In this document: positions 3,487 through 57,634 of the stretch, in pieces
How positions within the stretch are numbered: the stretch's first letter is position 1
How the letters are laid out: every line of letters begins with the position of its first letter
Position numbers and translations under genes: made by a program
Virus record (IMG/VR): IMGVR_UViG_3300003583_000001
Location: 9,943 to 73,942 of that record
Origin: a virus
Direction: 5' to 3' (one strand)
Length of the DNA: 64,000 bases
Notes under the pieces: generated by a model
Databases searched by the model: none
What the model was told of the DNA's origin: nothing
Seen by the model: only the letters and a program-made list of their open reading frames with translations

Positions 3487-3492
3487 CGTCAA

Positions 3493-3879
3493 GTGTCTGA
3501 AGAAGAAACTAACACCGTCACCATTGATGCAGCGGCTTTGCCTGGTGCTGATGCAAATGGTGATGGTCATGTCTCACAAGAAGAGATGGATATGTACCTT
3601 GAGTTCAAGCGTAAAGAGTTAGAAGACGCTGATGCTCGTAGAGATGCGATGAGGCAAATGACTTGGTTTGCTTTGTTTGGAATGCTTCTGTATCCGTTTA
3701 GTATCTTCTTCACTTCGTTATTTGGTGTAGACAAAGCAGCAGTGATTATTGGTAACATTGCACCAACATACTTTGTAGCAATCTCTGCACTTGTTGCTGC
3801 TTACTTTGGTGCTAATGCTTACAGTGATAAGAAGGGTAGTAAACCATCAGGTAAACCATCAACACCTGTTAAGAAATAG
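3493..3879 (+). CDS. membrane protein with N-terminal EF-hand-like loop and 2 predicted TM helices
   Basis: DANGDGHVSQEE loop; hydrophobic segments MTWFALFGMLLYPFSIFF and TYFVAISALVAAYFG. Confidence 0.7.
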   Translation: MSEEETNTVTIDAAALPGADANGDGHVSQEEMDMYLEFKRKELEDADARRDAMRQMTWFALFGMLLYPFSIFFTSLFGVDKAAVIIGNIAPTYFVAISALVAAYFGANAYSDKKGSKPSGKPSTPVKK

Positions 3880-3954
3880 CTTACTCTAAACATCATTAGC
3901 GATAACGCTATTATACCATGTTTGGAGAAAAAGTCAATAGGAAAATAGAAGAAA

Positions 3955-6039: not shown

Positions 6040-6047
6040 CCAAATAA

Positions 6048-6073
6048 AAAGGGGAGCTAAAAAGCTCCCCTTT
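6048..6073. terminator. probable bidirectional intrinsic terminator
   Basis: AAAGGGGAGCT-AAAA-AGCTCCCCTTT between convergent genes. Confidence 0.85.
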
Positions 6074-6076
6074 CTC

Positions 6077-7009
6077 TTAGTCTTCAGCCAACTTCTTGAA
6101 GAACGATAAACTATCATCCTCCGCATCATCAACTGTATCCATTGCCCACGACGGCGATGAATCTTCAGTCTTGCGTTCAGGAGCAGATGCTTCCTTGAAC
6201 TGAGGCTTGAAGTCCATCACCGTCGGCTCGTCTTCCTGAGCGGTCGTTTTGGGTGCGTGTGAACCGCCATCAAGAGCGAGTACCCGATAGAGTTTAGTCT
6301 TCAGGTCATCATAGCTCTTGAAGTTCTTAGGATCGACGAGTTCTTGTAGGGAGTGCTGCGACTTCCAGATACGTTCCAACTCATCATCATCAGTATGAAG
6401 AGGAGTGGCAGAAGCAAAATCGGAACGGTCGTAGTTACGATATCCTTCTACATTACGAATCTTGAGATTGAAGTTTGCACCTTCCCAAAAGTCAAAAGGA
6501 TTCACTGGAGTCTCATCTTCAAACTGAGGATTCATTGCTTCGTTCAGCTTGTCGAAAATCTTCTTGCCATACTGATAGAGAAAGACCTTACCTTCGTTCT
6601 CAGGTTTAGCGGAATCCTTTACGATATAAACGTTAGAGTAATATTTCAGACGGCGCTTCTGCTTACGAGCAATCTCCTTATCAGAGTCAACACCAGAGTT
6701 CCAAAGTGTAGAGTTGTATTCAGACACTGGGTCTTCTTGACCGATTGATGTAAGGTTGTTCTCGATATACCAACCACCTGGACCTTGAAAGCCGTGGTTC
6801 CAGAGACGAACGAAAGGCATGTCTTCGCCGTCGGGTGCTGGTAGGAAGCGTAGTACAGCATAGCCATTACCAGCCTTATCGACTTGTGGCTTCCAGATAC
6901 GGTCATCACCGTAGGTCCGCTTTGCTTCACTACCGTTCAACTTTTGAAGTTGAGCGTTTAGCTTGTCAAAAGAGTTCTTTTGAGTCTTCAAGTTTGCGAA
7001 TGCGTTCAT
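6077..7009 (-). CDS. 32: single-stranded DNA-binding protein (T4 gp32)
   Basis: DDRIWKPQVDKAGNGYAVLRFLP...HGFQGPGGWYIEN...GKKIFDK...NPFDFWEGANF; acidic tail. Confidence 0.97.
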   Translation of the reverse strand: MNAFANLKTQKNSFDKLNAQLQKLNGSEAKRTYGDDRIWKPQVDKAGNGYAVLRFLPAPDGEDMPFVRLWNHGFQGPGGWYIENNLTSIGQEDPVSEYNSTLWNSGVDSDKEIARKQKRRLKYYSNVYIVKDSAKPENEGKVFLYQYGKKIFDKLNEAMNPQFEDETPVNPFDFWEGANFNLKIRNVEGYRNYDRSDFASATPLHTDDDELERIWKSQHSLQELVDPKNFKSYDDLKTKLYRVLALDGGSHAPKTTAQEDEPTVMDFKPQFKEASAPERKTEDSSPSWAMDTVDDAEDDSLSFFKKLAED

Positions 7010-7032
7010 TTGTATTTTCCTTGTATTGCGAT

Positions 7033-7623
7033 TTATCCAAAACGATCAAGTAATGTTTGCTTCATTACTGACCTATCATATTGTAGAAACGGTTTGTATT
7101 TACTACTCTTAGAGTATACAACCTCCCAGATGATTTGTAAAGCTATTTTTGAGTTCCAATGCTTAAAAATATCTAGAATGTCGTCGAGTATAATCAGTGA
7201 TTCCAGTGAAAAACGTTTAGCGATAACTTCGTTTAACAATGGCGGGTGCTGACCATTCACCACTTTAAAGTTAGAGTCAAAATCTTCGTCTAATGTTCGT
7301 ATCTCCTGTTTGAAGTGATATGTTAGTGATTGAATTTTCTTCGACCACTGCTTATATATATCGTCGCTTTCACTGTTTAGCAGGTCTCCAACCCATATCT
7401 TTTTGTCAGAGTTGACCATATTAGCAACGATATAATTCTTGTAATCGTTATGTTTTGATAACTTATAGAACTGAAACTTATCCTTTCGAATCTCGAACGA
7501 CTGCGGAGAAGCATTTACCTTGCCGTTGTACTTGAAGTAGTCATACGACGAGGTGAAATGCCTCTGTAGTGCTAGATACGCAATGTATGTTTCATATGCG
7601 TCTCTGGTCGAGTATGTGTTCAT
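7033..7623 (-). CDS. 59: helicase loader (T4 gp59)
   Basis: YLALQRHF...YDYFKYNGK...RKDKFQFYKL...KYKPFL; sits between 33 and 32. Confidence 0.9.
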   Translation of the reverse strand: MNTYSTRDAYETYIAYLALQRHFTSSYDYFKYNGKVNASPQSFEIRKDKFQFYKLSKHNDYKNYIVANMVNSDKKIWVGDLLNSESDDIYKQWSKKIQSLTYHFKQEIRTLDEDFDSNFKVVNGQHPPLLNEVIAKRFSLESLIILDDILDIFKHWNSKIALQIIWEVVYSKSSKYKPFLQYDRSVMKQTLLDRFG

Positions 7624-7847
7624 ACGGGCAGCTTGGCTGTTCTCTCCATTAGACGGAGGTCTTCAGCTTCGTCCTGAATGCGAGACTTGAGATTTGTATT
7701 TTTGCGAATGATATCACCTAGTGCTTCAATTTCGATATCATTCTTTTGAGCATAATCCAAGACAGCATCCATATAGTTGCTATCAGGCTGCTTTGCGAGT
7801 TTATGCACATAAGTCATAAAATCATCATATTGTAATGTTAGCGTCAT
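7620..7847 (-). CDS. 33: late transcription co-activator (T4 gp33)
   Basis: YMDAVLDY...IEIE...LKSRIQDEAEDL..M...LPV; synteny with 59 and 32. Confidence 0.85.
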   Translation of the reverse strand: MTLTLQYDDFMTYVHKLAKQPDSNYMDAVLDYAQKNDIEIEALGDIIRKNTNLKSRIQDEAEDLRLMERTAKLPV

Positions 7848-8005
7848 GGCAATCTCTCCTTCAAATGTAAAATCCTATTTTCAAAGTAATCTATGATTGA
7901 TGTTTCGTCATTATAAACAGTATCAACCTTGTTTAAACAAACCTTTAAACCCTCAACGTGACGTTGGAACACAGCAAGTTCTATAAGTTCAGCCGCATCA
8001 AGCAT
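7844..8005 (-). CDS. hypothetical protein (53 aa)
   Basis: Manual ORF MLDAAELIELAVFQRHVEG... with SD GGAG and ATGA coupling to gp33. Confidence 0.6.
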   Translation of the reverse strand: MLDAAELIELAVFQRHVEGLKVCLNKVDTVYNDETSIIDYFENRILHLKERLP

Positions 8006-8021
8006 TTGGTATCTCCCTGTT

Positions 8022-8246
8022 TTAGATTACGTCAAGACGAGTTAGAGCCATCTCTTGTTCCAAGAGTTGTTCGTATTCTTTCTCCGATATGATATAAGGG
8101 GATTGAGACATGAGCGATTGCACAGATTGATTCACAGAATCGTGAATGAAATCTTCTGCCTCATAGAAGTCTTCAAATTCTGTGACCTCTGGGTTTGGGT
8201 CAAGCGAGTCTACAGCGATTGTTACACGATATCTCATTCTACACAC
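8022..8246 (-). CDS. hypothetical protein
   Basis: ORF track; tightly packed early gene string. Confidence 0.6.
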   Translation of the reverse strand: MCRMRYRVTIAVDSLDPNPEVTEFEDFYEAEDFIHDSVNQSVQSLMSQSPYIISEKEYEQLLEQEMALTRLDVI

Positions 8247-8422
8247 TCCTCAATACAAATCTCCTTATGAATCTCATAACGGTAACCGTCGGCTGCTCGC
8301 CAAGTGTGCTTGACCGTATGCTCCAACATTGACAGATTGTCAGTGTCATAGTCTTGCTTTAACACCTGACGCTCTCCAGCTTTAGTACGCTTGTCTGTTT
8401 TGTAAATCTCTACAGTAAGCAT
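8234..8422 (-). CDS. hypothetical protein
   Basis: ORF track; SD AGGAG upstream. Confidence 0.65.
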   Translation of the reverse strand: MLTVEIYKTDKRTKAGERQVLKQDYDTDNLSMLEHTVKHTWRAADGYRYEIHKEICIEECVE

Positions 8423-8432
8423 TGTCTTCTCC

Positions 8433-8651
8433 TTATGAACGAATGCCGTGTTCTGCTGCTAACTCAGTTCCGTTGAACAGAGTGAAGCCATCCACATCGT
8501 TGATAGCAACCATCACTTCGAGGTCGATACCAGCTTTGGTACGAACGCTCTCAATGCGACCCCTACCAAGAGGAGTATCGATGAAGTTGCCTTCGGCACC
8601 CCAAAGGTCTTCCATGAAGGTCTTCATCTCAGGAGAAATAGTCTTGGTCAT
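8433..8651 (-). CDS. hypothetical early protein
   Basis: MTKTISPEMK... with SD AAGGA, directly downstream of the early promoter. Confidence 0.7.
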   Translation of the reverse strand: MTKTISPEMKTFMEDLWGAEGNFIDTPLGRGRIESVRTKAGIDLEVMVAINDVDGFTLFNGTELAAEHGIRS

Positions 8652-8679
8652 CTGTCTTCCTTTCATTCTCACTATACTT

Positions 8680-8708
8680 AATATAGCAACTCTGAAGACA
8701 AATGTCAA
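8680..8708 (-). promoter_or_regulatory. sigma70-type early promoter, repeated family
   Basis: TTGACA-17nt-TATATT with an upstream A/T tract. Confidence 0.85.
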
Positions 8709-8736
8709 GAGTTATTTTCACTTTTTTCAAAAAAAA

Positions 8737-8812
8737 TGGTGCTGCCACGAGGATTCGAACCCCGGACCTGAGGTTTACAAAACCCCTGCTCTACCGACTG
8801 AGCTATAGCAGC
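8737..8812 (-). tRNA. tRNA-Thr(UGU)
   Basis: GCTGCTATAGCTCAGTCGGTAGAGCAGGGGTTTTGTAAACCTCAGGTCCGGGGTTCGAATCCTCGTGGCAGCACCA; cloverleaf with encoded CCA. Confidence 0.95.
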
Positions 8813-10074
8813 TTAATATTCATATGTGTTAGCATATCGTTTGCTAGGTCACGAAACCAAACGCTATCGTGACCTCGTGTAGTCTCAGCGGCTGTCCCAA
8901 TACGAATACCACTTGTTTCTACAAAAGAGCGTGGATCGTTAGGCACACCATTCTTATTCACTGTGATGCCCTTTGCTTCAAGCATATCTGCTGCATCTCG
9001 ACCAGAACGATTCGTCCCACTGAGATTTAGCAAAACGATATGAGAGTCTGTACCACCAGTCTGTACGTTCATACCTCTGTTAGTGAATACATTACACATC
9101 ACTCTAGCGTTATGAATAACCTGCTGGCTGTATAGTTTAAAGTCATCAGTGTTAGCCTCAATGAACGCTTGTGCTTTTGCAGCAATCATATTCATCAGAG
9201 GTCCGCCCTGTGTGCCAGGAAATATAGCGCTATTTATTTGCTTCGTATAAGATGGGCGGTTCCATAGAATGATGCCGCCTCTGGGACCACGAAGCGTCTT
9301 ATGAGTTGTGCTTGATACTACGTCAGCAAAATCACATGGGTTTTCATAGGCACCACCTGCAATCAAGCCAGAGTAGTGAGCCATATCTACGAATAGATAA
9401 GCGCCAACACTGTCTGCAATCATCCGCATTGCTTCCCAGTCGATTTGTCGAGGATAAGCACTCGCACCAGCAACAATCATCTTTGGCCTGAACTGACCAG
9501 CCTTATCAGATACCTCTTGGTAATCGATGAAGCCATTCTCGTCCACACCATATGAATGTGCTTTGTATATTTTTCCTGAAGCAGTCATTGGCGCACCATG
9601 AGTTAGATGTCCGCCAGAAGCAAGGTCCATACCGAGGATCGTATCACCCGGTTTTAGGAATGCTTGATATACAGCCATGTTAGCATTAGCGCCAGAGTGC
9701 GGCTGTACGTTAGCATACTCACACCCATAGAGTTCTTTCAGTTGGTCAATCGCCAACTGCTCAATCGAATCCATATGCTCACAGCCGTTGTAATAACGCT
9801 TGCCTGGATAACCTTCCGCATACTTGTTTGTAAAGACGCTACCACAGAGTTGCATAACAGCATCACTAGCAAAGTTCTCACTAGCAATCAACTCAATCGT
9901 ATCATTTTGTCTAGTAACCTCACTTGATAAAATTTTATTGACCCTACTGTCAATTCCTGTACCGTGATACATTTCATCTCCATTATCTCTCATAAAGTCC
10001 CAATGCGACAATCGTTTTTCGTTCATTTTAATAGCATTCCAATAAACAGTTAGTAGATCATTATACTTTATCAT
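8803..10074 (-). CDS. glyA: serine hydroxymethyltransferase
   Basis: ELIASENF, NKYAEGYPGKRYY, SSTTHKTLRGPRGG (PLP lysine), GGTDSH, SGIRIGT. Start may be at a downstream Met. Confidence 0.97.
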   Translation of the reverse strand: MIKYNDLLTVYWNAIKMNEKRLSHWDFMRDNGDEMYHGTGIDSRVNKILSSEVTRQNDTIELIASENFASDAVMQLCGSVFTNKYAEGYPGKRYYNGCEHMDSIEQLAIDQLKELYGCEYANVQPHSGANANMAVYQAFLKPGDTILGMDLASGGHLTHGAPMTASGKIYKAHSYGVDENGFIDYQEVSDKAGQFRPKMIVAGASAYPRQIDWEAMRMIADSVGAYLFVDMAHYSGLIAGGAYENPCDFADVVSSTTHKTLRGPRGGIILWNRPSYTKQINSAIFPGTQGGPLMNMIAAKAQAFIEANTDDFKLYSQQVIHNARVMCNVFTNRGMNVQTGGTDSHIVLLNLSGTNRSGRDAADMLEAKGITVNKNGVPNDPRSFVETSGIRIGTAAETTRGHDSVWFRDLANDMLTHMNIKLL

Positions 10075-10246
10075 TATAACTATTCACAAATTTGTGGGCT
10101 AGTGATTCATTGTCATATTTATATTTTACAGCAAATTCTGTGTTGGAATTTTTATGATGAATCCAAATTTCATATCCATCATTATCAAGGTCATGAACTC
10201 TTGCAAATCCATCACGTTCATTCGAGGGCATTTTTGCAACCAACAT
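10061..10246 (-). CDS. hypothetical protein
   Basis: ORF track; SD GGAG. Confidence 0.6.
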   Translation of the reverse strand: MLVAKMPSNERDGFARVHDLDNDGYEIWIHHKNSNTEFAVKYKYDNESLAHKFVNSYNDKV

Positions 10247-10267
10247 AAAAACGACTCCAACAGAAAA

Positions 10268-10294
10268 ATAGAGGGGAGAACAACTCCCCTCTAT
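10268..10294 (-). terminator. intrinsic terminator
   Basis: Stem ATAGAGGGGAG/CTCCCCTCTAT followed by a T run on the - strand. Confidence 0.8.
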
Positions 10295-10302
10295 ATATCA
10301 CG

Positions 10303-10680
10303 TTAGAATTTAACTGAGGTTGTGAACCCCACAAAAGTATCTTGATATGCAGCGTCACCATCTGTCGTCATTTTAACATATGGCGTTACACCAACATTAA
10401 ACAATTCCAAATTGTATCCAGCTTCAAGTTCAACGCCGGTCAATTCAAACTCATCAACAAGTACTGTTGGCGTTACACCAACATAAATATTATTCCAATC
10501 GACGGTTGCGCTAGGCTCTGCTGTGATTGTGCCTGCATCGATTGCATATGCTACATCATTGCTGAGTGTAAGACCGAGACCATATGGCAATAGACCGCCT
10601 TCTGGTGCTGCTTCGCCATCTGCTAGTGCAGGCGAAGCAAGAAATGCTGTAACTGCTACAGCGGCTAGTAGCTTCTTCAT
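10303..10680 (-). CDS. small exported outer-membrane beta-barrel-like protein
   Basis: Sec signal MKKLLAAVAVTAFLASPALA, alternating beta-strand pattern, terminal Phe (GFTTSVKF). Confidence 0.7.
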   Translation of the reverse strand: MKKLLAAVAVTAFLASPALADGEAAPEGGLLPYGLGLTLSNDVAYAIDAGTITAEPSATVDWNNIYVGVTPTVLVDEFELTGVELEAGYNLELFNVGVTPYVKMTTDGDAAYQDTFVGFTTSVKF

Positions 10681-10704
10681 TTATTTGACTCCTTTAAAGT
10701 TAAA

Positions 10705-10965
10705 AATGACAGGAAGGTCCGAAGACCCCTTCTGTTTCCAAGCGTCCTGTCCCGCTCATAAGAATTATGCTGCTAGAGCATATTCCTGAGAAACGAAATT
10801 ATCGTTTGCATTTAGTTTGTTTTAGTCATATCGTGACCAATCGGTAACTCCAGTCCTCTATTATCTGCATGTCGAAACCTGTTTCGCCCCCATAAGGTTT
10901 ATGGTGGAGGCGTCCGGTACTGCCCCGGAGTCCATTACAGTTTTCAATTTCCTTCATCGTTACTT
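10705..10965 (-). ncRNA. ssrA: circularly permuted (two-piece) tmRNA; tag (A)ANDNFVSQEYALAA
   Basis: Acceptor piece ...CCGGGGCAGTACCGGACGCCTCCACCA ends at 10902; 10-nt spacer; 5' end GGGGGCGAAACAGGTTTCGAC at 10891; 7-bp acceptor stem with G3-U70; tag frame 10809-10765. Outer limits approximate. Confidence 0.95.
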
Positions 10966-11001
10966 CTGTATATATCTAATCCCAAAAGACTAGATATATA
11001 A

Positions 11002-11700
11002 CTATTTCTCTAGCATCTTTCTCTTGAATGCTAACCAACCAATGAATCGTTTTTCAAACCACCACTCAAGGTCTTTATATTTCTTGAACTGCTGGTCAAA
11101 TCCAGTAGGATCAAACGATGGCTTGGGATTGCGAACGTTTGTGCCAGGAATAATTTTGTTCGTGGAATACTTAGCATATTGCTTTTTACCCATAATCTTC
11201 TGCACGAACTCAGGCATATCCAATAGATAGTAGTATTCAGCATCCATTATGATTTCATTTTCTATCTTTTTGTTAGGCCAGTCGTGCTTGTATAGAGGTT
11301 TCAATTCATCAGGTCGAATGTCACGATTACTACCCAAATCTATCACATTAGGGCTCCAGTGAATAGTGAAGTTCTCTGGAGGAATTACCATGTGAAGTTC
11401 ACCAAAGATTGAGCTACCTCTTGGTATATGTGTGCAAAAGATAGGGTTTTTAATATCCATAGACAACAGCAGCTTTTGCTGATCAGCCATATCAGCACCA
11501 CCACGGGCAATCCCATCTGCTCTGGTAGAAGTAACCTTGTCTAGCAATCCTTTATATTTCTTATTGAATGACCGATAGAGAATAAACTCGTTCCTGACAG
11601 GTTTTAGCAATCTGATTGCCTTTTTGACCCTATTTTCCATATGGTCGATCTGTCTTGCACTGATAACATCTTCATTTAGGTATGACTTAAATGTTAGCAT
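11002..11700 (-). CDS. hypothetical protein with capsid-targeting-like N-terminus (MLTFKSYLNE)
   Basis: Start moved to ATG 11700, next to the alt stop; leader resembles T4 internal-protein leaders. Confidence 0.7.
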   Translation of the reverse strand: MLTFKSYLNEDVISARQIDHMENRVKKAIRLLKPVRNEFILYRSFNKKYKGLLDKVTSTRADGIARGGADMADQQKLLLSMDIKNPIFCTHIPRGSSIFGELHMVIPPENFTIHWSPNVIDLGSNRDIRPDELKPLYKHDWPNKKIENEIIMDAEYYYLLDMPEFVQKIMGKKQYAKYSTNKIIPGTNVRNPKPSFDPTGFDQQFKKYKDLEWWFEKRFIGWLAFKRKMLEK

Positions 11701-11701
11701 A

Positions 11702-13846
11702 TCAGTCTTCTTTTGATGGGTCAACTGGCACATCAACTTCGATATCACCGTCCTTGATAGCTTTAGTTACTAGGGCAGCAAGGTTCCAATCGTATGTACC
11801 ACCAAACTTTCCTTCAGGGTCGTAACCATCTTCTTTTTTCTCTTCGCTCATGCTAATCATCCTTTGAAGTGATAATAGTATTCTACGACTTTCTACTGCT
11901 TCTGTCAACCCTTTTTTCAATTTTTCTACAATACTTTTGTAAGCAAATCCCATGTAGACGCCTTGAAAGAATATTCTACTTGAACCATCAACTGTTCGTT
12001 CTTCTGCTTCTACAACTTTGATGATAGAAGTGGGTGGTAAAATAATTTCTTGCTCAGGTTCGTGTTGACTATGTTCTAAGATGGGTATAACCTTAGACCC
12101 TTTCGGTAAAAAGATTCTCATTCTATCTTTACCGCCGATAGTCACATCTGTTCTTAAAGATGCGCTTGTGAAAGCTGGGTCAACGTATTCATAGCCAGGA
12201 ACAATCGCTTCTCTCATTTCATATGGCACCAGAGTAGAACGATACACATACATGCTCTCTGGTAGAGGCTTTAGCGTTTCAAAAATTTTTGCCATTTTAG
12301 CAATCTTTTTCGTGCCGCTTGTCAATTCGTCAATTTCAGCCTTAGTAAGAGGTTCTTTTCTAAACAACTTACTCACAATTTTTCTAAGAGGATCGTTGAA
12401 AGAAGTATAACCCGAACCACTATAATGTACAACATTTTTATATACTGATTTGGGCAAATTCTCTATCTCATTATAATAATTGAGTCCGTCTTGACTTTGT
12501 AAGTGCTGGCGAATTGTACCAATATCATATTCCGAACTCTCTACAAAGAAAGTCCCTTTAATCTTTACTTCACTCGTACCAGTTCCAGGCATTGTTGATT
12601 TGAACTCTGTCATATCAATATCTAACTTAGGCTTCTTTTTTACCTTACTGGGCTTTGATACGGCAGTTTTTATAGAATCAAAAGCAGCTTCTTTCTTAGC
12701 ATTTCGATAAGCAATAATTGCCATCATATGTTTTTCGTCGCTGGCATCAACAGGCATAGCCATATACTTCAGAATCTCAATCCAAATTTGTCCAGTTGCG
12801 CCCTTGATATTACCCAAGTTTGCGTCAGGAAGACTACCGCCAGCAGCCATCGTATCTACGAGTTGTTTATTAAACGTACTCATTTGATTATACACATATT
12901 GTAAATTATCAAAATCTACTTTCTTTACATCAAATCCATTTACTCGTAATGCGTTTGCCATTTTAGCAAACTCTGGAATTGTTCTAAGAGCATTAGCAAG
13001 AGCGCCAACTGATGACATATCCTCTGGATCGAAAACTCCTGAAGAATCAATCTTTTTCTCTACTTCCACTTGCTTTTCAATATGCTTCGCTACTTCACCT
13101 GACATTTTAGTGGCCGCTAACTTATCAAGGAGTTCTGTATCAGAAGGCACATCTAAATCGTATTGACCAAAAGTGTATTTCTTTGATGGTGCTATTGTAT
13201 GTGTTTGCTGGACTGGCTTTTTTGGCTTCATAGAGTCTAGAGACTTGAGAAGAGCGTCTGAATTGTCATTTTTAGAAGGATCGAAACCAAACTCTTTGAA
13301 TTCTTTTGCTTTGAAAATTGCTTCAGGAGATAGTGCTTTTTTTCCTATAAAGACATAGCCATGATTGTATTTTTTAGTAAACTGTTTTTCGCCAACCTGA
13401 GTTACTTGAAACACCGTGAAGATATTCATCGAAGATTTTTTGAGCGCTTTAATGGCAATGCGTTCAGCTACTTTTCTTTTTCCTATCTGACCATGTAGAC
13501 GAATTGCTATACCAGTAAGTTTCGGACCAACTGTAGTTATTGCTTTTTTTGCAAAATCAAGCGTTGTCGCAATTACAGGCAAAATATCTGATGGATTATG
13601 AAACTTCCACCATCCAGCTTTGCCTCCAACCTTTTTAACTTTACCCACATCTAGAGTGTATATACCTTCGCCATTTTGCTCAACAAGACGTATGATATAT
13701 GTGCCGCCATTAATTGTAGTAGCACCATACATTTTGCTTGGTAAGACTGTATCATCAGTCATATAATATTCTTTGGGATTGTTCAACGCTTCTGCGAGAA
13801 GAATGTCCTCATTCAGATTGTTAAAAATATCGAATTTTTTCAGCAC
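11702..13846 (-). CDS. alt: Alt-like NAD:protein ADP-ribosyltransferase
   Basis: C-terminal ART motifs Y..SGY...N..LR, VYRS, FTSAS, EQEIILP (R-S-ExE class); 714 aa; late promoter upstream. Confidence 0.85.
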   Translation of the reverse strand: MLKKFDIFNNLNEDILLAEALNNPKEYYMTDDTVLPSKMYGATTINGGTYIIRLVEQNGEGIYTLDVGKVKKVGGKAGWWKFHNPSDILPVIATTLDFAKKAITTVGPKLTGIAIRLHGQIGKRKVAERIAIKALKKSSMNIFTVFQVTQVGEKQFTKKYNHGYVFIGKKALSPEAIFKAKEFKEFGFDPSKNDNSDALLKSLDSMKPKKPVQQTHTIAPSKKYTFGQYDLDVPSDTELLDKLAATKMSGEVAKHIEKQVEVEKKIDSSGVFDPEDMSSVGALANALRTIPEFAKMANALRVNGFDVKKVDFDNLQYVYNQMSTFNKQLVDTMAAGGSLPDANLGNIKGATGQIWIEILKYMAMPVDASDEKHMMAIIAYRNAKKEAAFDSIKTAVSKPSKVKKKPKLDIDMTEFKSTMPGTGTSEVKIKGTFFVESSEYDIGTIRQHLQSQDGLNYYNEIENLPKSVYKNVVHYSGSGYTSFNDPLRKIVSKLFRKEPLTKAEIDELTSGTKKIAKMAKIFETLKPLPESMYVYRSTLVPYEMREAIVPGYEYVDPAFTSASLRTDVTIGGKDRMRIFLPKGSKVIPILEHSQHEPEQEIILPPTSIIKVVEAEERTVDGSSRIFFQGVYMGFAYKSIVEKLKKGLTEAVESRRILLSLQRMISMSEEKKEDGYDPEGKFGGTYDWNLAALVTKAIKDGDIEVDVPVDPSKED

Positions 13847-13875
13847 GGTAAACTCCCAGTGTGTACGTTTACTCG

Positions 13876-13883
13876 TATTTATA
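13876..13883 (-). promoter_or_regulatory. T4 late promoter upstream of alt
   Basis: TATAAATA on the - strand. Confidence 0.75.
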
Positions 13884-14294
13884 TTAGATGTGAACTACGA
13901 GAACCTTGGGCGTTTTGTTGAGTTGAAAAGCAACATCGAGGCGAGTGTTGCCACCAAGGACACGCATCTTACCACTCTCTCTGAACATCAGAACGATGGG
14001 CATCGTCATTGGCATATCGTTACCAATGCGCTCATAGAGATTAGCAATCGTCTGCTCATTACGAAACTCAGGATATGAGCGATACGAGCGAATGAGATTG
14101 AGCAACTGCTCCTTAGAGCGAGTGTGTGACCTATACCCAATGTAAGCGTCTGTGACGCCATCAAGTTCAAGCACATCGCCTTCTGAAGCCGCCTGAAGAA
14201 AGGCTGCCTCGCTATCAAAGAAGTTATTACCCTTCAGTTCGATTTCAACGAAGTACTCTTGCTTGAGGTCTGCTTCAGAAGGTTTGATCCACAT
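13884..14294 (-). CDS. ParB/Srx-like domain protein
   Basis: PIVL....MRVLGGNTRL resembles the ParB N-terminal GxxR motif; start taken at MWIKPS. Confidence 0.55.
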   Translation of the reverse strand: MWIKPSEADLKQEYFVEIELKGNNFFDSEAAFLQAASEGDVLELDGVTDAYIGYRSHTRSKEQLLNLIRSYRSYPEFRNEQTIANLYERIGNDMPMTMPIVLMFRESGKMRVLGGNTRLDVAFQLNKTPKVLVVHI

Positions 14295-16143: not shown

Positions 16144-16220
16144 TGGCGGTCCCTATAGGATTCGAACCTATGACCCACAGCTTAGAAGGCTGTTGCTCTA
16201 TCCAACTGAGCTAAGGAACC
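16144..16220 (-). tRNA. tRNA-Arg(UCU)
   Basis: GGTTCCTTAGCTCAGTTGGATAGAGCAACAGCCTTCTAAGCTGTGGGTCATAGGTTCGAATCCTATAGGGACCGCCA. Confidence 0.95.
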
Positions 16221-16927: not shown

Positions 16928-17002
16928 TGGCTCCGTGGGTAGGATTCGAACCTACGACCGGTCGGTTAACAGCCGACTGCTCTACCACTGAGCTACCACG
17001 GA
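16928..17002 (-). tRNA. tRNA-Asn(GUU)
   Basis: TCCGTGGTAGCTCAGTGGTAGAGCAGTCGGCTGTTAACCGACCGGTCGTAGGTTCGAATCCTACCCACGGAGCCA. Confidence 0.95.
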
Positions 17003-20158: not shown

Positions 20159-20524
20159 TTATCTCCTCATCTTTGCTAGTGCTTCAGCATCTTCAGTAGA
20201 AAACACTGGAACCATATTACTCTTGTGCATCGTTGCAATACCAAGTAGCTTACGCTTACCACTATATTGCATAGGTTCTTTTTTCGGTGCCACACCAGTT
20301 GGAATTTGATTAGAAAGCGTGGTGGGCCCGGCAGGATTCGAACCTGCGACAACGCCGTTATGAGCGGCGGGTTCTGACCGCTGAACTACAGGCCCGTTAT
20401 ATCCCATCTTCTTGAGAAACTTTGCATGAGCAGCATCTGTTTGTTGCTGCTTCTTTGACTTCTTCTGTTTTCGCTTCTTCGTACTCGTTGTACTGAAGTA
20501 AGCTGGAAGCATATGCATCGACAT
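20159..20524 (-). CDS. basic hypothetical protein with an in-frame embedded tRNA
   Basis: SD GAGGAG; promoter upstream; C-terminal YSG..LLGIATMHKSNMVPVF...A.MRR motif recalled from T4-like phage hypothetical proteins. Confidence 0.75.
   Translation of the reverse strand: MSMHMLPAYFSTTSTKKRKQKKSKKQQQTDAAHAKFLKKMGYNGPVVQRSEPAAHNGVVAGSNPAGPTTLSNQIPTGVAPKKEPMQYSGKRKLLGIATMHKSNMVPVFSTEDAEALAKMRR
20320..20395 (-). tRNA. tRNA with CAU anticodon, most likely tRNA-Ile2 (lysidine type)
   Basis: GGGCCTGTAGTTCAGCGGTCAGAACCCGCCGCTCATAACGGCGTTGTCGCAGGTTCGAATCCTGCCGGGCCCACCA; G1-C72 pair (not initiator); resembles bacterial Ile2 tRNAs. Confidence 0.88.
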
Positions 20525-52239: not shown

Positions 52240-52247
52240 TATAAATA
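52240..52247 (+). promoter_or_regulatory. T4 late promoter for the + strand exported-protein operon
   Basis: TATAAATA 40 nt upstream of ATG 52288. Confidence 0.8.
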
Positions 52248-52287
52248 AACACATGAAGTAGAAATAATTTGTATTAGGATTGATGAG

Positions 52288-52833
52288 ATGAATAGATTTA
52301 TCATTGCTTTGTTTGCTTTAATTTTTGCATCTACAAGCGCATATGCACAAACAGAAGATAAGATAACGACGGATAATACCAGTAGAATTGACTCTACGAC
52401 TACGGTTAAGTCTCCTCCGCCGTCTGCTATTTCTCCCACTATCAATACCTCAAATTCTGATTTGTGTACGATTGGCGTTTCCGGCGCTGTTCAGACACAG
52501 ATTCTAGGTCTGTCTGCTGGTAAGACTGTACGAGATATGAATTGTGAGAAGTTGAAGAATGCTAAAACGCTATATGATATGGGAATGAAAGTTGCTGCTG
52601 TATCTGTGATGTGTCAAGATAAACGAGTGTTTGATGCTATGATGCACGCCGGAACACCCTGCCCGTATGATGGTAAGATTGGAGTTGAGGCTAAAGCAGC
52701 GTGGCAAGACGATGAAGCGATGCAGCCAAAAGAAGAAAATACAGTTAGGAGTGTAATGGATGACGATAGCACGATTACCCTTATTGGTGGCGGCATTGTT
52801 CTCGGTTTGCTTACCATTCTCAGCTTACTCTGA
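52288..52833 (+). CDS. exported Cys-containing protein with amphipathic beta-hairpin and C-terminal TM anchor
   Basis: Signal peptide (AYA); C..GVSGAVQTQILGLSAG...NC...C...PCP; hydrophobic tail. Confidence 0.8.
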   Translation: MNRFIIALFALIFASTSAYAQTEDKITTDNTSRIDSTTTVKSPPPSAISPTINTSNSDLCTIGVSGAVQTQILGLSAGKTVRDMNCEKLKNAKTLYDMGMKVAAVSVMCQDKRVFDAMMHAGTPCPYDGKIGVEAKAAWQDDEAMQPKEENTVRSVMDDDSTITLIGGGIVLGLLTILSLL

Positions 52834-53611
52834 GACAAAGACTGCTACGTCTGGAAATGCAGCAGACGGTCAAACAGTATGGGACATGCAAACGATACTA
52901 CCACCTGAAACTGGTCTTATCGTAAATCAAGTACATTATAACTATACAGTAACAAAGGTTAGAGAAGACGACTTTACAGTAACGATTCAAAATGAAAGAG
53001 TTGGCGGTGGTGAAAACATCTTTGAAAGCACAGATGATTGGTCTGGATTAGACGGTAACACGATTGATAAGAATATACCCGTTGCAAATCTACCAAGAGA
53101 AATATGGGGGGATGGAAGTCTGACTACAACTGGCGAAGGAACTATAACAGACGCTAATGTTCGTTATAGCTATATATTTGACGACTGTCTTGACCCACTG
53201 ACGAATCCGTTATGCCCACAAGATGAACCACCAGAATTGCCTGTAATTATAAATCCATTTGATTCAGATGAAGTACAAAACGCTCTTGCAGACAAAGCAG
53301 ATGTAGATGATGAAGATGATGAACGTAAAGATGATGAAGAGAATAGTTTAGAGGACAAGGAAAAGAGAAGACAATTAGCACAAGAGAACAATCCACTACT
53401 AAACAATGCAGCACAGCTTGCTGCTTTGTTTGATCAAATGTCTCTTGTTCCTAAATTTGATTCGTATTATGCTGCTGATATACAAGGCGGCACCTATGAA
53501 GAAACTATTGAGTTAAAAGATGGTACATTACCTGATAACAGAAGGGCAATGAGAAGCCTCGCTAAAGACCAAAAGTTTGAAACAATCATTAGGTCACAGT
53601 ACGACAAATAG
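52760..53611 (+). CDS. exported beta-rich protein with CxxPxxxPxCP linker and acidic stalk
   Basis: Signal peptide; beta-strand-rich N-terminal domain; CLDPLTNPLCP; D/E-rich region; ends in SQYDK. Confidence 0.8.
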   Translation: MTIARLPLLVAALFSVCLPFSAYSETKTATSGNAADGQTVWDMQTILPPETGLIVNQVHYNYTVTKVREDDFTVTIQNERVGGGENIFESTDDWSGLDGNTIDKNIPVANLPREIWGDGSLTTTGEGTITDANVRYSYIFDDCLDPLTNPLCPQDEPPELPVIINPFDSDEVQNALADKADVDDEDDERKDDEENSLEDKEKRRQLAQENNPLLNNAAQLAALFDQMSLVPKFDSYYAADIQGGTYEETIELKDGTLPDNRRAMRSLAKDQKFETIIRSQYDK

Positions 53612-53622
53612 GAGATAAGAAT

Positions 53623-54135
53623 ATGGCTAAGAGAACGATAGGTTATTTTTTAGCAATCGTTGGAGCAGTATTTGCAAGTCAAGCACTCGCAAACGAAAAT
53701 GCACCAATCACAGGAACAGTAGAATCTAAGTGTGTAATCTTTACTGAAACACAAGGTGTATATGGCACACCACTTGCAAGCAGACTTTCTACTACTGCGG
53801 CAGATGGTGGTGTTCAACCAATCATTCGTTATGACGTAGCGCTTGCTGATGCGTTTAAAGGAAAAATAACATTTCCAAGTGAATTTTCAAGTTCACCAAG
53901 CCTAACAGATACTCTAGCATTCACAGGGAATGTTGAAGTTCATAGTGTATCTGATACTGGAATGGCGGACTATGACACTAACAAAATAACATTCAACAAC
54001 ACTCACGAATATGATTTGACGGTTGCTGGTACAACTAAGTTCAAAATCTCTTCACAGGTAGACTACGGTAACAGTAAGGCTCTCCCTGCTGGTACATATA
54101 CAACACTTGTAAATGCGGAGTGTATCGCAAAGTAA
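53623..54135 (+). CDS. putative fimbrial subunit (Csu/SCPU archaic chaperone-usher pilin-like)
   Basis: Signal (ALA); N-terminal ITGTVESKC strand; C-terminal LPAGTYTTLVNAEC; about 148 aa, all-beta mature chain. Confidence 0.6.
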   Translation: MAKRTIGYFLAIVGAVFASQALANENAPITGTVESKCVIFTETQGVYGTPLASRLSTTAADGGVQPIIRYDVALADAFKGKITFPSEFSSSPSLTDTLAFTGNVEVHSVSDTGMADYDTNKITFNNTHEYDLTVAGTTKFKISSQVDYGNSKALPAGTYTTLVNAECIAK

Positions 54136-54146
54136 GGTAAGATATT

Positions 54147-54518
54147 ATGAAAATTGCAATTTTAGCAGCAGCGTTATTGTTTTCCTTTAGCGCTGCTGCT
54201 CATGAAATGACACCGGCATATTTAAAGATTAAACAATCTGAAGTGACTGATGTATATGCTACAGAGATTAAGATGTACAACAGAAGAAGTGATGTTGATT
54301 ACTATCAAATATCTGTATTTGATGGTCAGTGGAACAGGCTTCCATTTGCATCGTTTCAACGACTATTCAAACTTCCTTATACGAAAAGAAAAACGATTAA
54401 GGTGTATTTTCAAAAAGAAGTTGCTAATAAAGTCGTATATGTTTGTACAAAATCTAAGTTATATAAGGGAGCGGGAACATTCGTATCCTCAAGAATATGC
54501 TCTAAAGTAAAACGATGA
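54147..54518 (+). CDS. putative single-domain PapD-like periplasmic pilus chaperone
   Basis: Signal (AAA); HEMTPAYLKI...IKMYN.....YYQISV.D...F.L.....K.I.V...SRI resembles PapD N-domain strand order. Confidence 0.5.
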   Translation: MKIAILAAALLFSFSAAAHEMTPAYLKIKQSEVTDVYATEIKMYNRRSDVDYYQISVFDGQWNRLPFASFQRLFKLPYTKRKTIKVYFQKEVANKVVYVCTKSKLYKGAGTFVSSRICSKVKR

Positions 54519-54898
54519 AATACGTTATAGCATTGCTCGCATTGCTATTCAGCTTTAATGCATATGGTCAATCTTTGAACTTGAGTATTCCAAGTGCGCC
54601 AAGCAACTTTGGAAGTGATAGATTTCGTGCTGGGGATTTAGATTGTCAAAACTCTATTGGCTCTGCAACAAACCTTGAGTTTGGTGTTACAGGCATTCAA
54701 AGAGGTGATCCACAATTTGATGACAGTTCGCCAGACGTTGGTGTGTATGCAAGAATTGTGATACCACTTGGCGCAAGACCAAGGTCAAGGGTCAACTGTA
54801 ATACTCTTTATCAACTAGAACTATCAAAGAAACGATTAGAAATACTCAGACTTGAGAGGGAACTCAACCAACTAAAAGCATTACAGTTTGAGGACTAG
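54515..54898 (+). CDS. exported protein with Cys-flanked amphipathic beta-hairpin and C-terminal coiled coil
   Basis: Signal (AYG); DC...NLEFGVTG...DVGVYARIVIPL...NC..LYQLEL...LE..RL..EL. Confidence 0.8.
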   Translation: MKYVIALLALLFSFNAYGQSLNLSIPSAPSNFGSDRFRAGDLDCQNSIGSATNLEFGVTGIQRGDPQFDDSSPDVGVYARIVIPLGARPRSRVNCNTLYQLELSKKRLEILRLERELNQLKALQFED

Positions 54899-54907
54899 GA
54901 GAGAATA

Positions 54908-55387
54908 ATGGCAGAAGTAGAAATTGCTGGTATGAAGTTGAAAGGGGGCAAGATGATGGTCCTCTTTACAGTTCTATCTACTCTTGCAGGTGGTTTATGG
55001 GCTGGTTTTGAGTTCTACAAAGACTACATGGACATGAAAGAGATTGTTGAGAACATCGACATACAAGCCATTAAAGCAGACAATGCTCTTGTAGTGACGA
55101 AACTAGAAGAGGCAATAGACTATACCAGAGATATTAAACAAGGGTTGAAAGACGACATCATTCGTATGGAAAAGGTGACGGATGATACCAATCGTAGAAT
55201 GAAAGTTCTTCAGAGAGATATTGACCTTCGTATGAGAGAACTGTCGGACCTTTCTCGTGAGTCTGAGAAGGACGCTAGAGATACTATGCGTGAAACAGAG
55301 GATCGTATAGATGGTAAGATGGAAAAGCTCGATGCGAGTCTAAGAAAGACCCTTCAAGAAGCACTTGACAACCCACTAACAAAATAA
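54908..55387 (+). CDS. inner-membrane-anchored coiled-coil protein
   Basis: N-terminal TM (MMVLFTVLSTLAGGLWAGF), long heptad region, ends in ALDNPL. Confidence 0.8.
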   Translation: MAEVEIAGMKLKGGKMMVLFTVLSTLAGGLWAGFEFYKDYMDMKEIVENIDIQAIKADNALVVTKLEEAIDYTRDIKQGLKDDIIRMEKVTDDTNRRMKVLQRDIDLRMRELSDLSRESEKDARDTMRETEDRIDGKMEKLDASLRKTLQEALDNPLTK

Positions 55388-55430
55388 ATTTAAAAAAGTT
55401 TTGTTTTGAGTAAGTTTTTCGTATAAATAG

Positions 55431-55562
55431 ATCACTAGGGTGCGTGTTAGTGTATTCAAAGGAGTACAAGAGGCAAGTGTTAAGATCAAGTCGATCCAAA
55501 GCAAGGAAAAGTCGTTGTCGCCCATATGGGCCGCTGGGGTTGCGTTCGACCACGTTACTAGG
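55431..55562 (+). ncRNA. candidate late structured ncRNA (about 130 nt)
   Basis: TATAAATA at 55422-55429; closing stems CTAG/CTAG and CGTG/CACG; hairpins TGTATTC/GAGTACA and GCCCATATGGGC; terminator follows. Confidence 0.55.
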
Positions 55563-55567
55563 AAAAT

Positions 55568-55597
55568 AAAAGCCGCTTCTTACGAGGCGGCTTTTTT
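55568..55597. terminator. probable bidirectional intrinsic terminator
   Basis: AAAAGCCGCTTC-TTAC-GAGGCGGCTTTTTT between convergent units. Confidence 0.88.
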
Positions 55598-55600
55598 AAT

Positions 55601-56035
55601 TCATCGATAATTTGATTCTTCCTCAACTGCATAGTGGTGTCTACCAAATTTACCATCCAATGTGTATATGAGGGTGGGAATTTTATGATCTAATATGCAT
55701 TCTTGACAACCAGCGCATGGTTGAGACAGTCCAAATATCATATTTTGATGAACATCATTCTTCACACGACACACATAGATACTACATTTCTTCAAAATAT
55801 TAGTATCAACGACTTTGAGTGCGTTGTAGATAGCATTAGTTTCTGCGTGCCAGAAGATTGCTTCATCATTCTTTGCATATCTAGCTTGAAACGGATGACT
55901 CTTCATGTGACTAGTACCGAAAGAAACTATCTTATTTTTATAGACAATAGCAGCAACGTGGCGAGGCCACACATTCGCAAGGTCGAGTGCTGCTGGCTTC
56001 AGTATATTAAAAACTTCACTGTGTTTCATCTTCAT
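55601..56035 (-). CDS. second zinc-dependent deaminase-family protein
   Basis: H.AAIV.K..IVS.G...HAE..AI...SQPCAGC. Confidence 0.8.
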   Translation of the reverse strand: MKMKHSEVFNILKPAALDLANVWPRHVAAIVYKNKIVSFGTSHMKSHPFQARYAKNDEAIFWHAETNAIYNALKVVDTNILKKCSIYVCRVKNDVHQNMIFGLSQPCAGCQECILDHKIPTLIYTLDGKFGRHHYAVEEESNYR

Positions 56036-56219
56036 CCATTAAATAAGGGGCTATACAATATGTGAAAAAATTGGGTGTGTTACCGTTAAATCCTTTACCA
56101 AGATTTAATCCTCTACACACCTCATTCGCTCGCCTTCGACTTTTAAACGTCATTATGACGGTTTGCTCATTTTCTATTAACGCATATTCTCCATCTCTGT
56201 GATTTATTTCGTACGACAT
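56016..56219 (-). CDS. hypothetical protein
   Basis: LN.G.GF.G.TP.FF; coupled to gp41. Confidence 0.7.
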   Translation of the reverse strand: MSYEINHRDGEYALIENEQTVIMTFKSRRRANEVCRGLNLGKGFNGNTPNFFTYCIAPYLMDEDETQ

Positions 56220-57634
56220 TACGCAAAACTAGCCTTCCATATATTTTTACCAAACTTTTTAGGAAGGGTTGAGTCTTTCTCTTGTTCATCCCATCGTTCA
56301 CCATATGAACTATTGCTCATGACTGGTGTATCATCTACCATACCATCTTGTGCTGATTGTTCTACGTTATAGAACCTCATTCTCGAACGGTCGATGCCAA
56401 TCACGAAACGCTTGTTCGAATTTGGATCGCCCCATCGATTTTTCAACTGCTTAATCATAATCTGACCAAGTTGTTCTAGTTCTTCAGTAGCAATCAGAGC
56501 GACCATAAAGTCAGCGGTAGCAGGCAGACCAAACGATTCAGAAGTATCTTCAAGACCAACATCAGAACTGCTGAAGCCAGAGCGTGTGGTCTGAGTAGCA
56601 GATACAATAGGAACATCATACTCTACAGCAAGACCACGAAGTTCTTCAGCAATGGACTTGATTAGTGTGTACGAGTTTGCCATAGCGTTTGCTTTGATAC
56701 GACTGCTTGTACAGATGTTCAGATAATCAATATAGATGATATCTGGAGTGAAGTTCTTCTTGAGTTTCAGTTCGTTCAGTAGATGACGGAAATGACCTGA
56801 CCCAGCAGATGCTGTTGGATATTCTTTGACAATCAGCTTACCTGGAGTTTTTGACTTCAGTCGATTGACTTTCTTTTCAAAAACATCTTTAGGCATCATG
56901 TGGATTTCATCAATAGAAGCATCAAGCAGATTTGCATCAATGCGTTCAGCGATTCGTTCTTCAGCCATTTCTAGTGTAATATACAATACGTTCTTGCCGT
57001 GCATGAGATTGCTCGCAGCAAAATGACACATAGCAAGAGACTTACCCACGCCAGTACCAGCAAGAATGATATTGAGAGATTTACGAGGAAGACCACCCTT
57101 CGTAATGGTATTTAGCAGTTCGATATCAAACTCAATTCTGGCTTCTTTACGATGGTAGAACTCATATCGTTCATCAACATTCTCAAGAAAATCATGCCCG
57201 ACGCTATTGTCGAATGACACACCCAAAGCATCTTGAAGTAGCTTGGGTATAGAGCCTTTGTCTAGCTTGCTATCATTGGAATCCATAACACCAATCGATG
57301 TTCGAATCGCATTGTAGAGTGCTTTGTCTTGACAGAAGGTCTCGGTCTTATCAAGCAGCCAGTCTTCGCTGTTCTTATCATCATACGACAGTTCATTGAT
57401 TGTTTTAGAAACAACTTCAAACTGTTCTTCTGATACACTACGAGACTCTTCCAACGAAAGACGCAGAGCATCCTTCGTTGGCACAGAGTTGTAGTCTTTG
57501 ATATAGGTATCAATAGTGCGATAGATTAACTTGTTCTCTAAACTATCAAAATATTCTTCTTCTAAAAACGGTAATACTTTCCTCGTATATTCTTCATTAT
57601 GTAATAGACTCCCTAGAATGAGAGGTTCAATCAT
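56219..57634 (-). CDS. 41: replicative DNA helicase (T4 gp41)
   Basis: AGTGVGKS, ITLEMAEE, KEYPT, IDYLNIC, IAEELRGLA, ATQTTRSG, SESFGLPATAD, KQLKNR. Confidence 0.97.
   Translation of the reverse strand: MIEPLILGSLLHNEEYTRKVLPFLEEEYFDSLENKLIYRTIDTYIKDYNSVPTKDALRLSLEESRSVSEEQFEVVSKTINELSYDDKNSEDWLLDKTETFCQDKALYNAIRTSIGVMDSNDSKLDKGSIPKLLQDALGVSFDNSVGHDFLENVDERYEFYHRKEARIEFDIELLNTITKGGLPRKSLNIILAGTGVGKSLAMCHFAASNLMHGKNVLYITLEMAEERIAERIDANLLDASIDEIHMMPKDVFEKKVNRLKSKTPGKLIVKEYPTASAGSGHFRHLLNELKLKKNFTPDIIYIDYLNICTSSRIKANAMANSYTLIKSIAEELRGLAVEYDVPIVSATQTTRSGFSSSDVGLEDTSESFGLPATADFMVALIATEELEQLGQIMIKQLKNRWGDPNSNKRFVIGIDRSRMRFYNVEQSAQDGMVDDTPVMSNSSYGERWDEQEKDSTLPKKFGKNIWKASFA

Follow-up and report, generated by a model that had tools for sequence, protein, structure and literature searches.

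The 64,000-nucleotide (nt) stretch of DNA analysed here, referred to below as the window, covers positions 9,943 to 73,942 of IMG/VR virus record IMGVR_UViG_3300003583_000001 and is a fragment of an uncultured marine T4-like phage. The record is 73.9 kb long and rated 43% complete, and the replicative helicase of the phage has at most 61% identity to that of any phage on record. Our subject is a block of six plus-strand genes, g1 to g6 (Table 1), that sits between two blocks of minus-strand genes and encodes a set of exported proteins, two of which are predicted to dock as a pilus chaperone and its subunit do. Beyond 6 kb, these are the only plus-strand open reading frames (ORFs) of at least 90 amino acids (aa) that are not nested in minus-strand genes, and the GC skew is positive only at 52-56 kb, its change of sign coinciding with the block. 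The genes are tightly packed: going from g1 to g6, they are separated by a 74-nt overlap, two 11-nt gaps, a 4-nt overlap and a 9-nt gap. An exact copy of the octamer TATAAATA, which resembles a T4-type late promoter, precedes g1. This octamer occurs 13 times in the window where 4.5 copies are expected, a count reached in none of 100 shuffles; it is absent inside the block, the next plus-strand copy lying after g6 at 55422, and in 11 of 30 distinct related loci, the g1 homologue is preceded by an exact copy at a distance of 22-68 nt.

All six proteins carry signals for export or membrane insertion. The products of g1 to g5 begin with hydrophobic Sec-type N-termini that have small residues at -3 and -1, and these residues are kept across homologues, with cleavage expected before Q21, E25, N24, H19 and Q19; g6 is anchored in the membrane by its N-terminus. 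An L-x-x-C lipobox is lacking from all six N-termini. The conserved cysteines come in pairs (g1 C60/C86/C109/C125, g3 C37/C167, g4 C100/C118 and g5 C44/C95), their invariant number being even in every exported domain, and g6 has no cysteine, a pattern that fits oxidation in the periplasm. The original prediction, made from this DNA alone, had described the six as the only credible plus-strand genes after 6 kb, placed behind a single TATAAATA promoter and each provided with a signal peptide or transmembrane anchor, and the ORF listing, the octamer search and the N-termini (cleavable-type signal peptides predicted for g1 to g5, an anchor for g6) agree with it on every point. The acidic stalk that it assigned to g2 and the Cys-flanked hairpin of g5 can be seen in alignments of homologues, where the hairpin has a variable tip and is followed by a C-terminal helix, and its membrane-anchored coiled coil corresponds in g6 to a membrane segment followed by a charged helical region.

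Table 1. Coordinates of the six genes and of other features of the window.
Feature	Position	Strand	Description
g1	52288-52833	+	ORF confirmed; signal peptide, Thr/Ser/Pro linker, strongly conserved four-Cys domain, acidic linker, C-terminal hydrophobic membrane tail (161-181)
g2	52760-53611	+	ORF confirmed; signal peptide, beta-rich domain of ~140 aa, acidic low-complexity stalk, C-terminal domain of ~80 aa
g3	53623-54135	+	ORF confirmed; exported subunit, immunoglobulin (Ig)-like in the model; conserved N-terminal extension (~24-36), C37, C-terminal PxGxY...C167 strand
g4	54147-54518	+	ORF confirmed; exported, single-domain and PapD-like in the model ("half-chaperone"); 123 aa, 104 mature; mature N-terminus at invariant His19
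g5	54515-54898	+	ORF confirmed; small, exported; C44/C95-bracketed beta-hairpin with variable tip, then C-terminal amphipathic helix
g6	54908-55387	+	ORF confirmed; bitopic inner-membrane protein; membrane segment 16-34, charged coiled-coil-type periplasmic part
TATAAATA, T4-type late-promoter-like octamer	52240-52247	+	Exact match, 41 nt before the g1 ATG
GC-rich hairpin with T-run, terminator-like	55572-55597	+	Read directly from the sequence
Transfer-messenger RNA (tmRNA) gene	10674-10996	-	Tag peptide ANDNFVSQEYALAA
Four tRNA genes (Thr, Arg, Asn, Met)	8737-8812, 16144-16220, 16928-17002, 20320-20395		

The block is conserved as a unit. Scans of IMG/VR with g3 and g5 yielded 55 loci, and in every locus long enough, on ~55 contigs, the six genes stand in the same order, with identities that range from 99% down to 24-60%, while the genes flanking the cassette vary widely among relatives. 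Shared order on this many contigs is co-occurrence far beyond chance. Some loci have additional genes at or near its end. In L029 (3626-4620) and L031 (6439-7436), a class-3 lipase without a signal peptide (PF01764, E = 5.9e-24) and a 91-aa membrane-anchored coiled-coil protein, which is XhlA-like below the family cut-off (E = 2.9e-4), are inserted between g5 and g6. Several relatives, L036 (7436-7909) and L033 (6992-7456) among them, have a same-strand gene downstream of g6 for a ~155-aa protein that is anchored to the membrane at its C-terminus; it may be a seventh member, which the window lacks. The cassette also turns up on contigs placed in metagenome-assembled genomes (MAGs) of a Methanobacteriota archaeon (L064, all of the cassette), Polaribacter sp. 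(L065) and Gammaproteobacteria (L066, the g5-g6 end); these are probably phage contigs mis-binned into cellular MAGs. The 74-nt overlap of g1 and g2 (52760-52833), in which both frames code for hydrophobic segments, the membrane tail of g1 and the signal peptide of g2, is present in related loci as well, for example L036 and L003.

Sequence searches place none of these proteins in a family of known function. Pfam, NCBIfam and PADLOC gave no usable match for any of the six, the PADLOC defence models returning only coiled-coil and acidic-region noise (E = 0.0037 or weaker), and sequence-profile searches of the PDB with g1 to g5 and the wider g3 family found nothing significant. Three of the proteins match PHROG families of unknown function (g1, PHROG 20531, E = 6.8e-15; g4, PHROG 25455, E = 5e-4; g5, PHROG 37374, E = 3.3e-7), g6 has only weak matches to coiled-coil families in Pfam, and g2 has no Pfam, PHROG, NCBIfam or PDB sequence match. 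The g1 family comprises more than 8000 clusters at 90% identity in metagenomes, none of them named. Searches of the Atlas with g5 returned only unnamed viral clusters, and an Atlas feature search with g4 gave PapD_N as a lead only (0.83). A g3 profile run against 1.8 billion representatives found 121 proteins; those whose source was looked up lie on short contigs from metagenomes, and a Pfam scan of 10 of them found no family. Scans of viral and metagenome contigs (P0193, P0232) gave nothing. Neither megablast of the locus against phage records nor tblastn of g3 against phages found a match, but profile hidden Markov models (HMMs) built from the 55 loci did find homologues in Vibrio phages.

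Structure prediction was more informative for g4. For its AF2 model (predicted local distance difference test score, pLDDT, 87.7), Foldseek finds 22 matches with E values of 1e-3 or lower, and almost all are N-domains of pilus chaperones: PapD leads at 3.0e-4, followed by SafB, Caf1M, FimC, FaeE and SfaE, and CsuC stands just below at 2e-3. Template-modelling (TM) scores against chaperone N-domains are 0.5-0.6 for matches with E between 3e-4 and 2e-3. VIA, an aligner independent of Foldseek, ranks the major sperm protein (MSP) domain of MOSPD2 first (Z 11.2, root-mean-square deviation 2.6 over 103 residues), with the chaperones FimC (Z 10.5), SafB (10.3), YadV (9.7), and CsuC and PapD (both 8.9). 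The modelled g4 thus has a PapD-like/MSP fold. A second, C-terminal Ig domain is absent, g4 being 123 aa long in 25 of 25 homologues, and a search for longer forms, either two-domain or fused, found none, which is weak evidence. The original prediction of a PapD chaperone N-domain accordingly stands at the level of the fold, for one domain amounting to half a chaperone and not for a complete chaperone.

The g3 model (pLDDT 85.5) is an Ig-like sandwich. Its best Foldseek rows are weak (E = 3.6e-3 to 1.4e-2) and enriched in chaperone-usher pilins, with the PapG pilin domain at 3.6e-3 and then CfaB, FimG, CupE, CsuA/B and Caf1; CsuA/B has rank 26 (E = 1.2e-2). A BFVD search added nothing, the best matches being uncharacterised proteins at E = 1.4e-3 or weaker. 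The motifs I29-x-G31-x-V33-x-S35-x-C37 and P155-x-G157-x-Y159...C167 are invariant or nearly so among 27 homologues, and in distant relatives the N-terminal segment reads V-x-F-x-G-T-V-x-x-x-C. When aligned with hhalign, the g3 N-terminus matches the donor-strand region of Escherichia coli type 1-like pilins with a probability of 88.5, over 39 columns that include the signal peptide. The pilin-like N- and C-terminal motifs proposed earlier for g3 are real and conserved, but their assignment to the Csu/SCPU pilins is unmatched by sequence.

The two proteins are also predicted to bind one another. Mature g3 and g4, each supplied with its own alignment, gave a complex score of 0.81 (runs of 0.82, 0.80 and 0.81), whereas the best control scored 0.00; 58 of 80 solved complexes and 2 of 110 mismatched pairs attain the mark used for this score. 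The runs share at least 93% of their contacts, with a partner pLDDT of 90. The contacts with the lowest predicted error pair residues 161-169 of g3 with residues 112-120 of g4 at a constant offset, and this constant register indicates parallel strands. In the predicted complex, g3 residues 38-39 contact g4 residues 115-117 and 19-20, and g4 residues 46-49, including the invariant R47, lie in the interface. The N-terminal extension of g3 (24-33) lies outside it, as expected for a strand reserved for exchange. The predicted docking has the geometry of donor-strand complementation, and it is closest to that of the FGL (F1-G1 long) chaperones because the N-terminus of g4 also engages the first strand of g3.

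The partner that such a pair would ordinarily serve is missing. Neither the 73.9-kb record nor any of five related ones, among them a 173.5-kb record rated 100% complete, contains a match to the usher family (PF00577) at E values up to 0.1, so the system is usher-less at the level that HMMs can see. In several respects, the original prediction fared well: the gene-neighbourhood check that it called for found the six genes together on ~55 contigs, the usher is absent from the record and from a complete relative, the multimer prediction of g3 with g4 gave a strand-complementation docking, and g3 and g4 have the Ig-like and PapD-like models whose absence would have spoken against it. Its overall picture of an exported, usher-less fimbria-like apparatus holds for export, the g4 fold, the Ig-like g3, the docking, the missing usher and the co-occurrence of the genes, and does not hold for the SCPU/Csu match or for a full chaperone.

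The profile HMMs also suggest how the cassette is put together. Genes like g3, g4 and g5 lie adjacent and in the same order in the T5-like Vibrio phage Bennett (gp148-150; E = 2.4e-8, 6.2e-9 and 6e-15) and in siphovirus 51E28.1 (p0041-43); altogether, 74 Vibrio phage records contain a g5 homologue. Before the trio, both phages encode two proteins of ~820 aa that lack signal peptides. After it, Bennett has genes for a 67-aa lipoprotein, a T-type holin (PF11031, E = 3.1e-49) and an M15 endolysin, and the same small lipoprotein lies just downstream of the trio in 51E28.1. The g1 family occurs without g3-g5 in the Pelagibacter phages HTVC115P, 202P, 033P, 023P, Mosig and Baldr and in roseophages. 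In the four pelagiphages examined, an exported protein 430-610 aa long is encoded after the g1 homologue, and a membrane-anchored coiled coil after that; in HTVC115P, gp53 weakly matches the g2 C-terminus (E = 1.2e-3) and gp49 matches g6 (E = 3.4e-30). In HTVC023P, the set (gp45-48) lies directly before the M15 endolysin gp49; its members include a g1 homologue (E = 7.8e-47), an exported protein of 461 aa and a coiled coil of 119 aa with a membrane anchor and a weak match to g6 (E = 0.007). The cassette of the T4-like phages looks like a module A (g1, g2, g6) into which a module B (g3, g4, g5) has been inserted. In some phages, the cassette is found near tail-fibre-like genes. A further relative lies in an integrated element of Vibrio sp. 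WXL210 (L067, positions 2709-13974 of an 873-kb contig), which sits inside a truncated xanthine/uracil permease gene. This element encodes a large serine recombinase, its T7-type RNA polymerase gene is interrupted by a gene for a GIY-YIG endonuclease, and the early region between integrase and polymerase carries a g4-like gene, a g5-like gene and two g3-like genes.

The operon is covered by contigs from the metatranscriptome libraries of three studies, one of which, 1442 nt long, runs from the end of g2 through g5 with 2 differences. This cover is compatible with a polycistronic RNA, the contigs showing no start, strand or level, and stretches that they leave uncovered carry no information.

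We tentatively favour the reading that the block is a Sec-exported phage envelope cassette with a usher-less chaperone/subunit-like core and that it likely remodels the envelope of the infected cell, by exclusion or receptor masking; taken whole, this statement is slightly less likely than not. The cassette would consist of two modules, and its core, g3-g4-g5, would be a usher-less relative of the chaperone/subunit pair of chaperone-usher systems. As a single PapD-like Ig domain, g4 would add its C-terminal strand to g3, in parallel with the last strand there and beside the first, while its N-terminus, from the invariant His19 onwards, would pack on the first strand in the manner of FGL-type donor-strand complementation. 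The free, conserved N-terminal extension of g3 could then displace g4 and link subunits by strand exchange. Together, g5, the membrane-tethered g1, the secreted g2 and the anchored g6 would position the assembly between the two membranes, within the periplasm. The envelope would probably be remodelled as a result, most plausibly so that phage receptors or entry are blocked or masked, whether for superinfection exclusion or for the protection of progeny from debris.

The gene context favours an appendage no more than it does envelope remodelling or lysis. Sites beside lysis or tail-fibre genes are the usual landing places of unrelated envelope "morons" such as lambda bor. We give envelope remodelling a modest first place because the tail-fibre- and lysis-adjacent positions and the prophage-early position are typical of such genes, and an envelope moron is preferred to a lysis gene because the trio occupies the integrase-proximal early region of the integrated element. 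T5 Llp, lambda Bor and Lom, and T4 Imm and Sp are likewise small exported or membrane proteins encoded beside tail-fibre or lysis genes and alter the cell surface, but they are single proteins of unrelated folds, whereas the present cassette is a six-protein, two-module set with a chaperone-like pair.

Several observations weigh against this interpretation. The PapD-like fold is shared by MSP domains, which are unrelated to pili and score as high as the chaperones do, and g3 has only a generic match by VIA, the best being staphylococcal adhesin domains at Z 7.5, within the range of common structural arrangements. At the sequence level, PapD_N, SCPU, Fimbrial and Usher families are all absent at E values up to 1, including PapD_N (PF00345) for g4; SCPU (PF05229) matched neither g3 nor 10 distant relatives and reached E = 1.5 in 1 of 17 relatives; and hhalign gave no alignment of g4 with FimC or YadV (probability 0.7). 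The docking result may partly reflect memory of solved chaperone-subunit complexes, and the alignments behind it were made in-house. In the docked model, C37 and C167 of g3 and C118 of g4 appear aligned across three strands, and if the g4 strand lies between the first and last strands of g3, the invariant C37 and C167 could not bond in the docked state. DNA carry-over is possible in the contigs from RNA libraries. Lastly, the modules adjoin holin or endolysin genes in three cultured phage lineages.

This last point leads to the strongest alternative, a lysis-associated apparatus that breaches the outer layers or times their breach as a non-canonical spanin-like bridge, which we consider unlikely but ranks second. 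Here, g6 would be the inner-membrane coiled coil, g5, g1 and g2 its periplasmic or outer-membrane partners, and g3-g4 an accessory or regulator. The lipoprotein, T-type holin and M15 endolysin that follow the trio in Bennett, the M15 endolysin directly after the g1-type set in HTVC023P, and the lipase and XhlA-like insert between g5 and g6 in L029 and L031 all speak for it, and a late-type promoter would suit lysis. The comparison with known spanins (lambda Rz/Rz1, T4 PseT.3/PseT.2) extends to the i-spanin topology of g6, in architecture only, and to the position of both modules beside holin or endolysin genes in cultured phages. However, none of the six proteins has a lipobox and so none is an o-spanin; a lipoprotein follows the trio only in Vibrio phages, and there are four extra exported proteins to account for. 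The trio also occurs in the early region of the integrated T7-like element, where an outer-membrane disruptor would be harmful, both early and in a lysogen, and lysis-adjacent sites are, as said, common to unrelated morons. In the record and its relatives, no T-type holin was found, so the linkage is not demonstrable there.

We think it improbable that the cassette builds a usher-independent surface fibre, the reading of the original prediction, in which a strand-exchange polymer of g3 would pass through a hairpin pore made by g5 (or g1) and serve aggregation or "sibling capture". The N-terminal extension of g3 is conserved, alternating and contains Gly, like pilin donor strands, the predicted g3-g4 docking is chaperone-like, and the Cys-bracketed hairpin of g5 has a hypervariable tip, as an exposed loop would. 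Pelagiphages have, moreover, been reported with another fibre system, the curli or type VIII secretion system (T8SS) (PMC7029224, PMC9599517). Against this stand the absence of any match to beta-barrel or secretin families among the proteins and the size of mature g5, a pilus pore built from a protein of ~108 aa with one hairpin being without precedent. A long shot of wider reach is a usher-independent strand-exchange pathway in which a one-domain chaperone would hand Ig-like subunits to an oligomeric g5-type outer-membrane conduit or anchor, so that infected or lysogenic cells acquire disulfide-locked fibres or a lattice across the periplasm, and which would have been spread by lytic marine phages at very high abundance. 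It is very hard to believe that the six belong to the virion or its assembly in the ordinary way, with hydrophobic N-termini that do not act as signal peptides: the late-type promoter, the tail-fibre-like neighbours in some phages and the Ig-like g3, a fold of many decoration proteins, would allow it, but all six N-termini are Sec-type or anchors with -3/-1 residues conserved across homologues where they are of the cleavable kind, paired invariant cysteines are typical of periplasmic proteins, the trio lies in a prophage early region, and named structural proteins are far weaker in the BFVD list than its uncharacterised best matches.

Among described systems, the envelope cassette that we favour is nearest to the chaperone-usher pairs (above all the FGL pairs Caf1M-Caf1 and SafB-SafA, and besides them FimC-FimA/G, PapD-PapK and the archaic CsuC-CsuA/B), with which it has in common a periplasmic PapD-like domain encoded beside an Ig-like subunit. 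The likeness extends to the predicted placement of the last strand of g4 parallel to that of g3 and of the g4 N-terminal strand on the first strand of g3, and to the free "x-hydrophobic-x-G-x-V" extension of g3, which is followed by a Cys. The differences are as clear: g4 has one domain (104 aa when mature) instead of two, there is no usher and no adhesin, no sequence match to PF00345, PF00419, PF05229 or PF00577 was found, the Cys pair of g3 joins the first and last strands and not strands A and B, and the carriers are lytic phages, in which a late promoter precedes the genes. Structurally, g4 is closest to the MSP/PapD-like superfamily (MOSPD2, VAP, nematode major sperm protein), whose domains also stand alone, but these are cytosolic eukaryotic peptide-binding or filament proteins, whereas g4 is exported and has a disulfide pair and an Ig-like partner.

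A parallel among marine phages is the curli/T8SS operon of pelagimyophages and HTVC023P-type podophages, for which CsgG, CsgF and CsgA-like genes have been reported; it too is a conserved, exported multi-gene block of marine T4-like and podoviral phages with a proposed role as surface fibre or pore (PMC7029224, PMC9599517). The g1 family is common to pelagiphages as well. The present cassette is not that operon, as no CsgG (PF03783) is found in the record, none of the six proteins matches CsgG, CsgF or curlin, and the folds differ. In the literature on phage-encoded chaperone-usher-like genes, we found no description of it.

Some observations concern the surroundings of the operon. Downstream of the second TATAAATA at 55422 come ~130 nt without a convincing ORF and then the GC-rich hairpin with its T-run (to 55597), which is the first terminator-like site downstream of the operon and may act as its terminator, a consensus scan not having listed the site. 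An Rfam scan of the operon gave no match, and the only one at 55422-55597, BSnc120 over the terminator, is sub-threshold, scoring 29.5 bits where the cut-off is 114. In two studies, RNA-library contigs (55404-55583 and 55354-55562) have their ends inside this unit. Run X9, which is labelled as a single organism ("organism A"), contains a 5.4-kb contig ~97% identical to window positions 52364-56500 with a SMART-type adaptor at its end; the genes along it lie on both strands, so that amplified phage DNA is a more probable source than a single transcript. Elsewhere in the window are four tRNA genes and a tmRNA gene that is possibly of the permuted form, its coding part lying late in the gene. We take its tag, ANDNF...ALAA, to be alphaproteobacterial-looking, which may hint at the host.

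The cassette is found in many marine T4-like phages and its core in cultured Vibrio phages, making it a common and apparently expressed function of ocean phages for which no description was found. Its genetics can be approached in the Vibrio phages Bennett and 51E28.1 and in the Pelagibacter phage HTVC023P. If the predicted docking is true, half a chaperone is enough for donor-strand complementation, even where no usher is present, which bears on the evolution of chaperone-usher systems, and a usher-independent pathway, if it exists, would be a third route to Gram-negative surface polymers beside chaperone-usher and curli. Whatever the role of the cassette, be it exclusion, receptor masking, lysis or aggregation, it would mean that the envelope of infected, abundant marine bacteria is changed.

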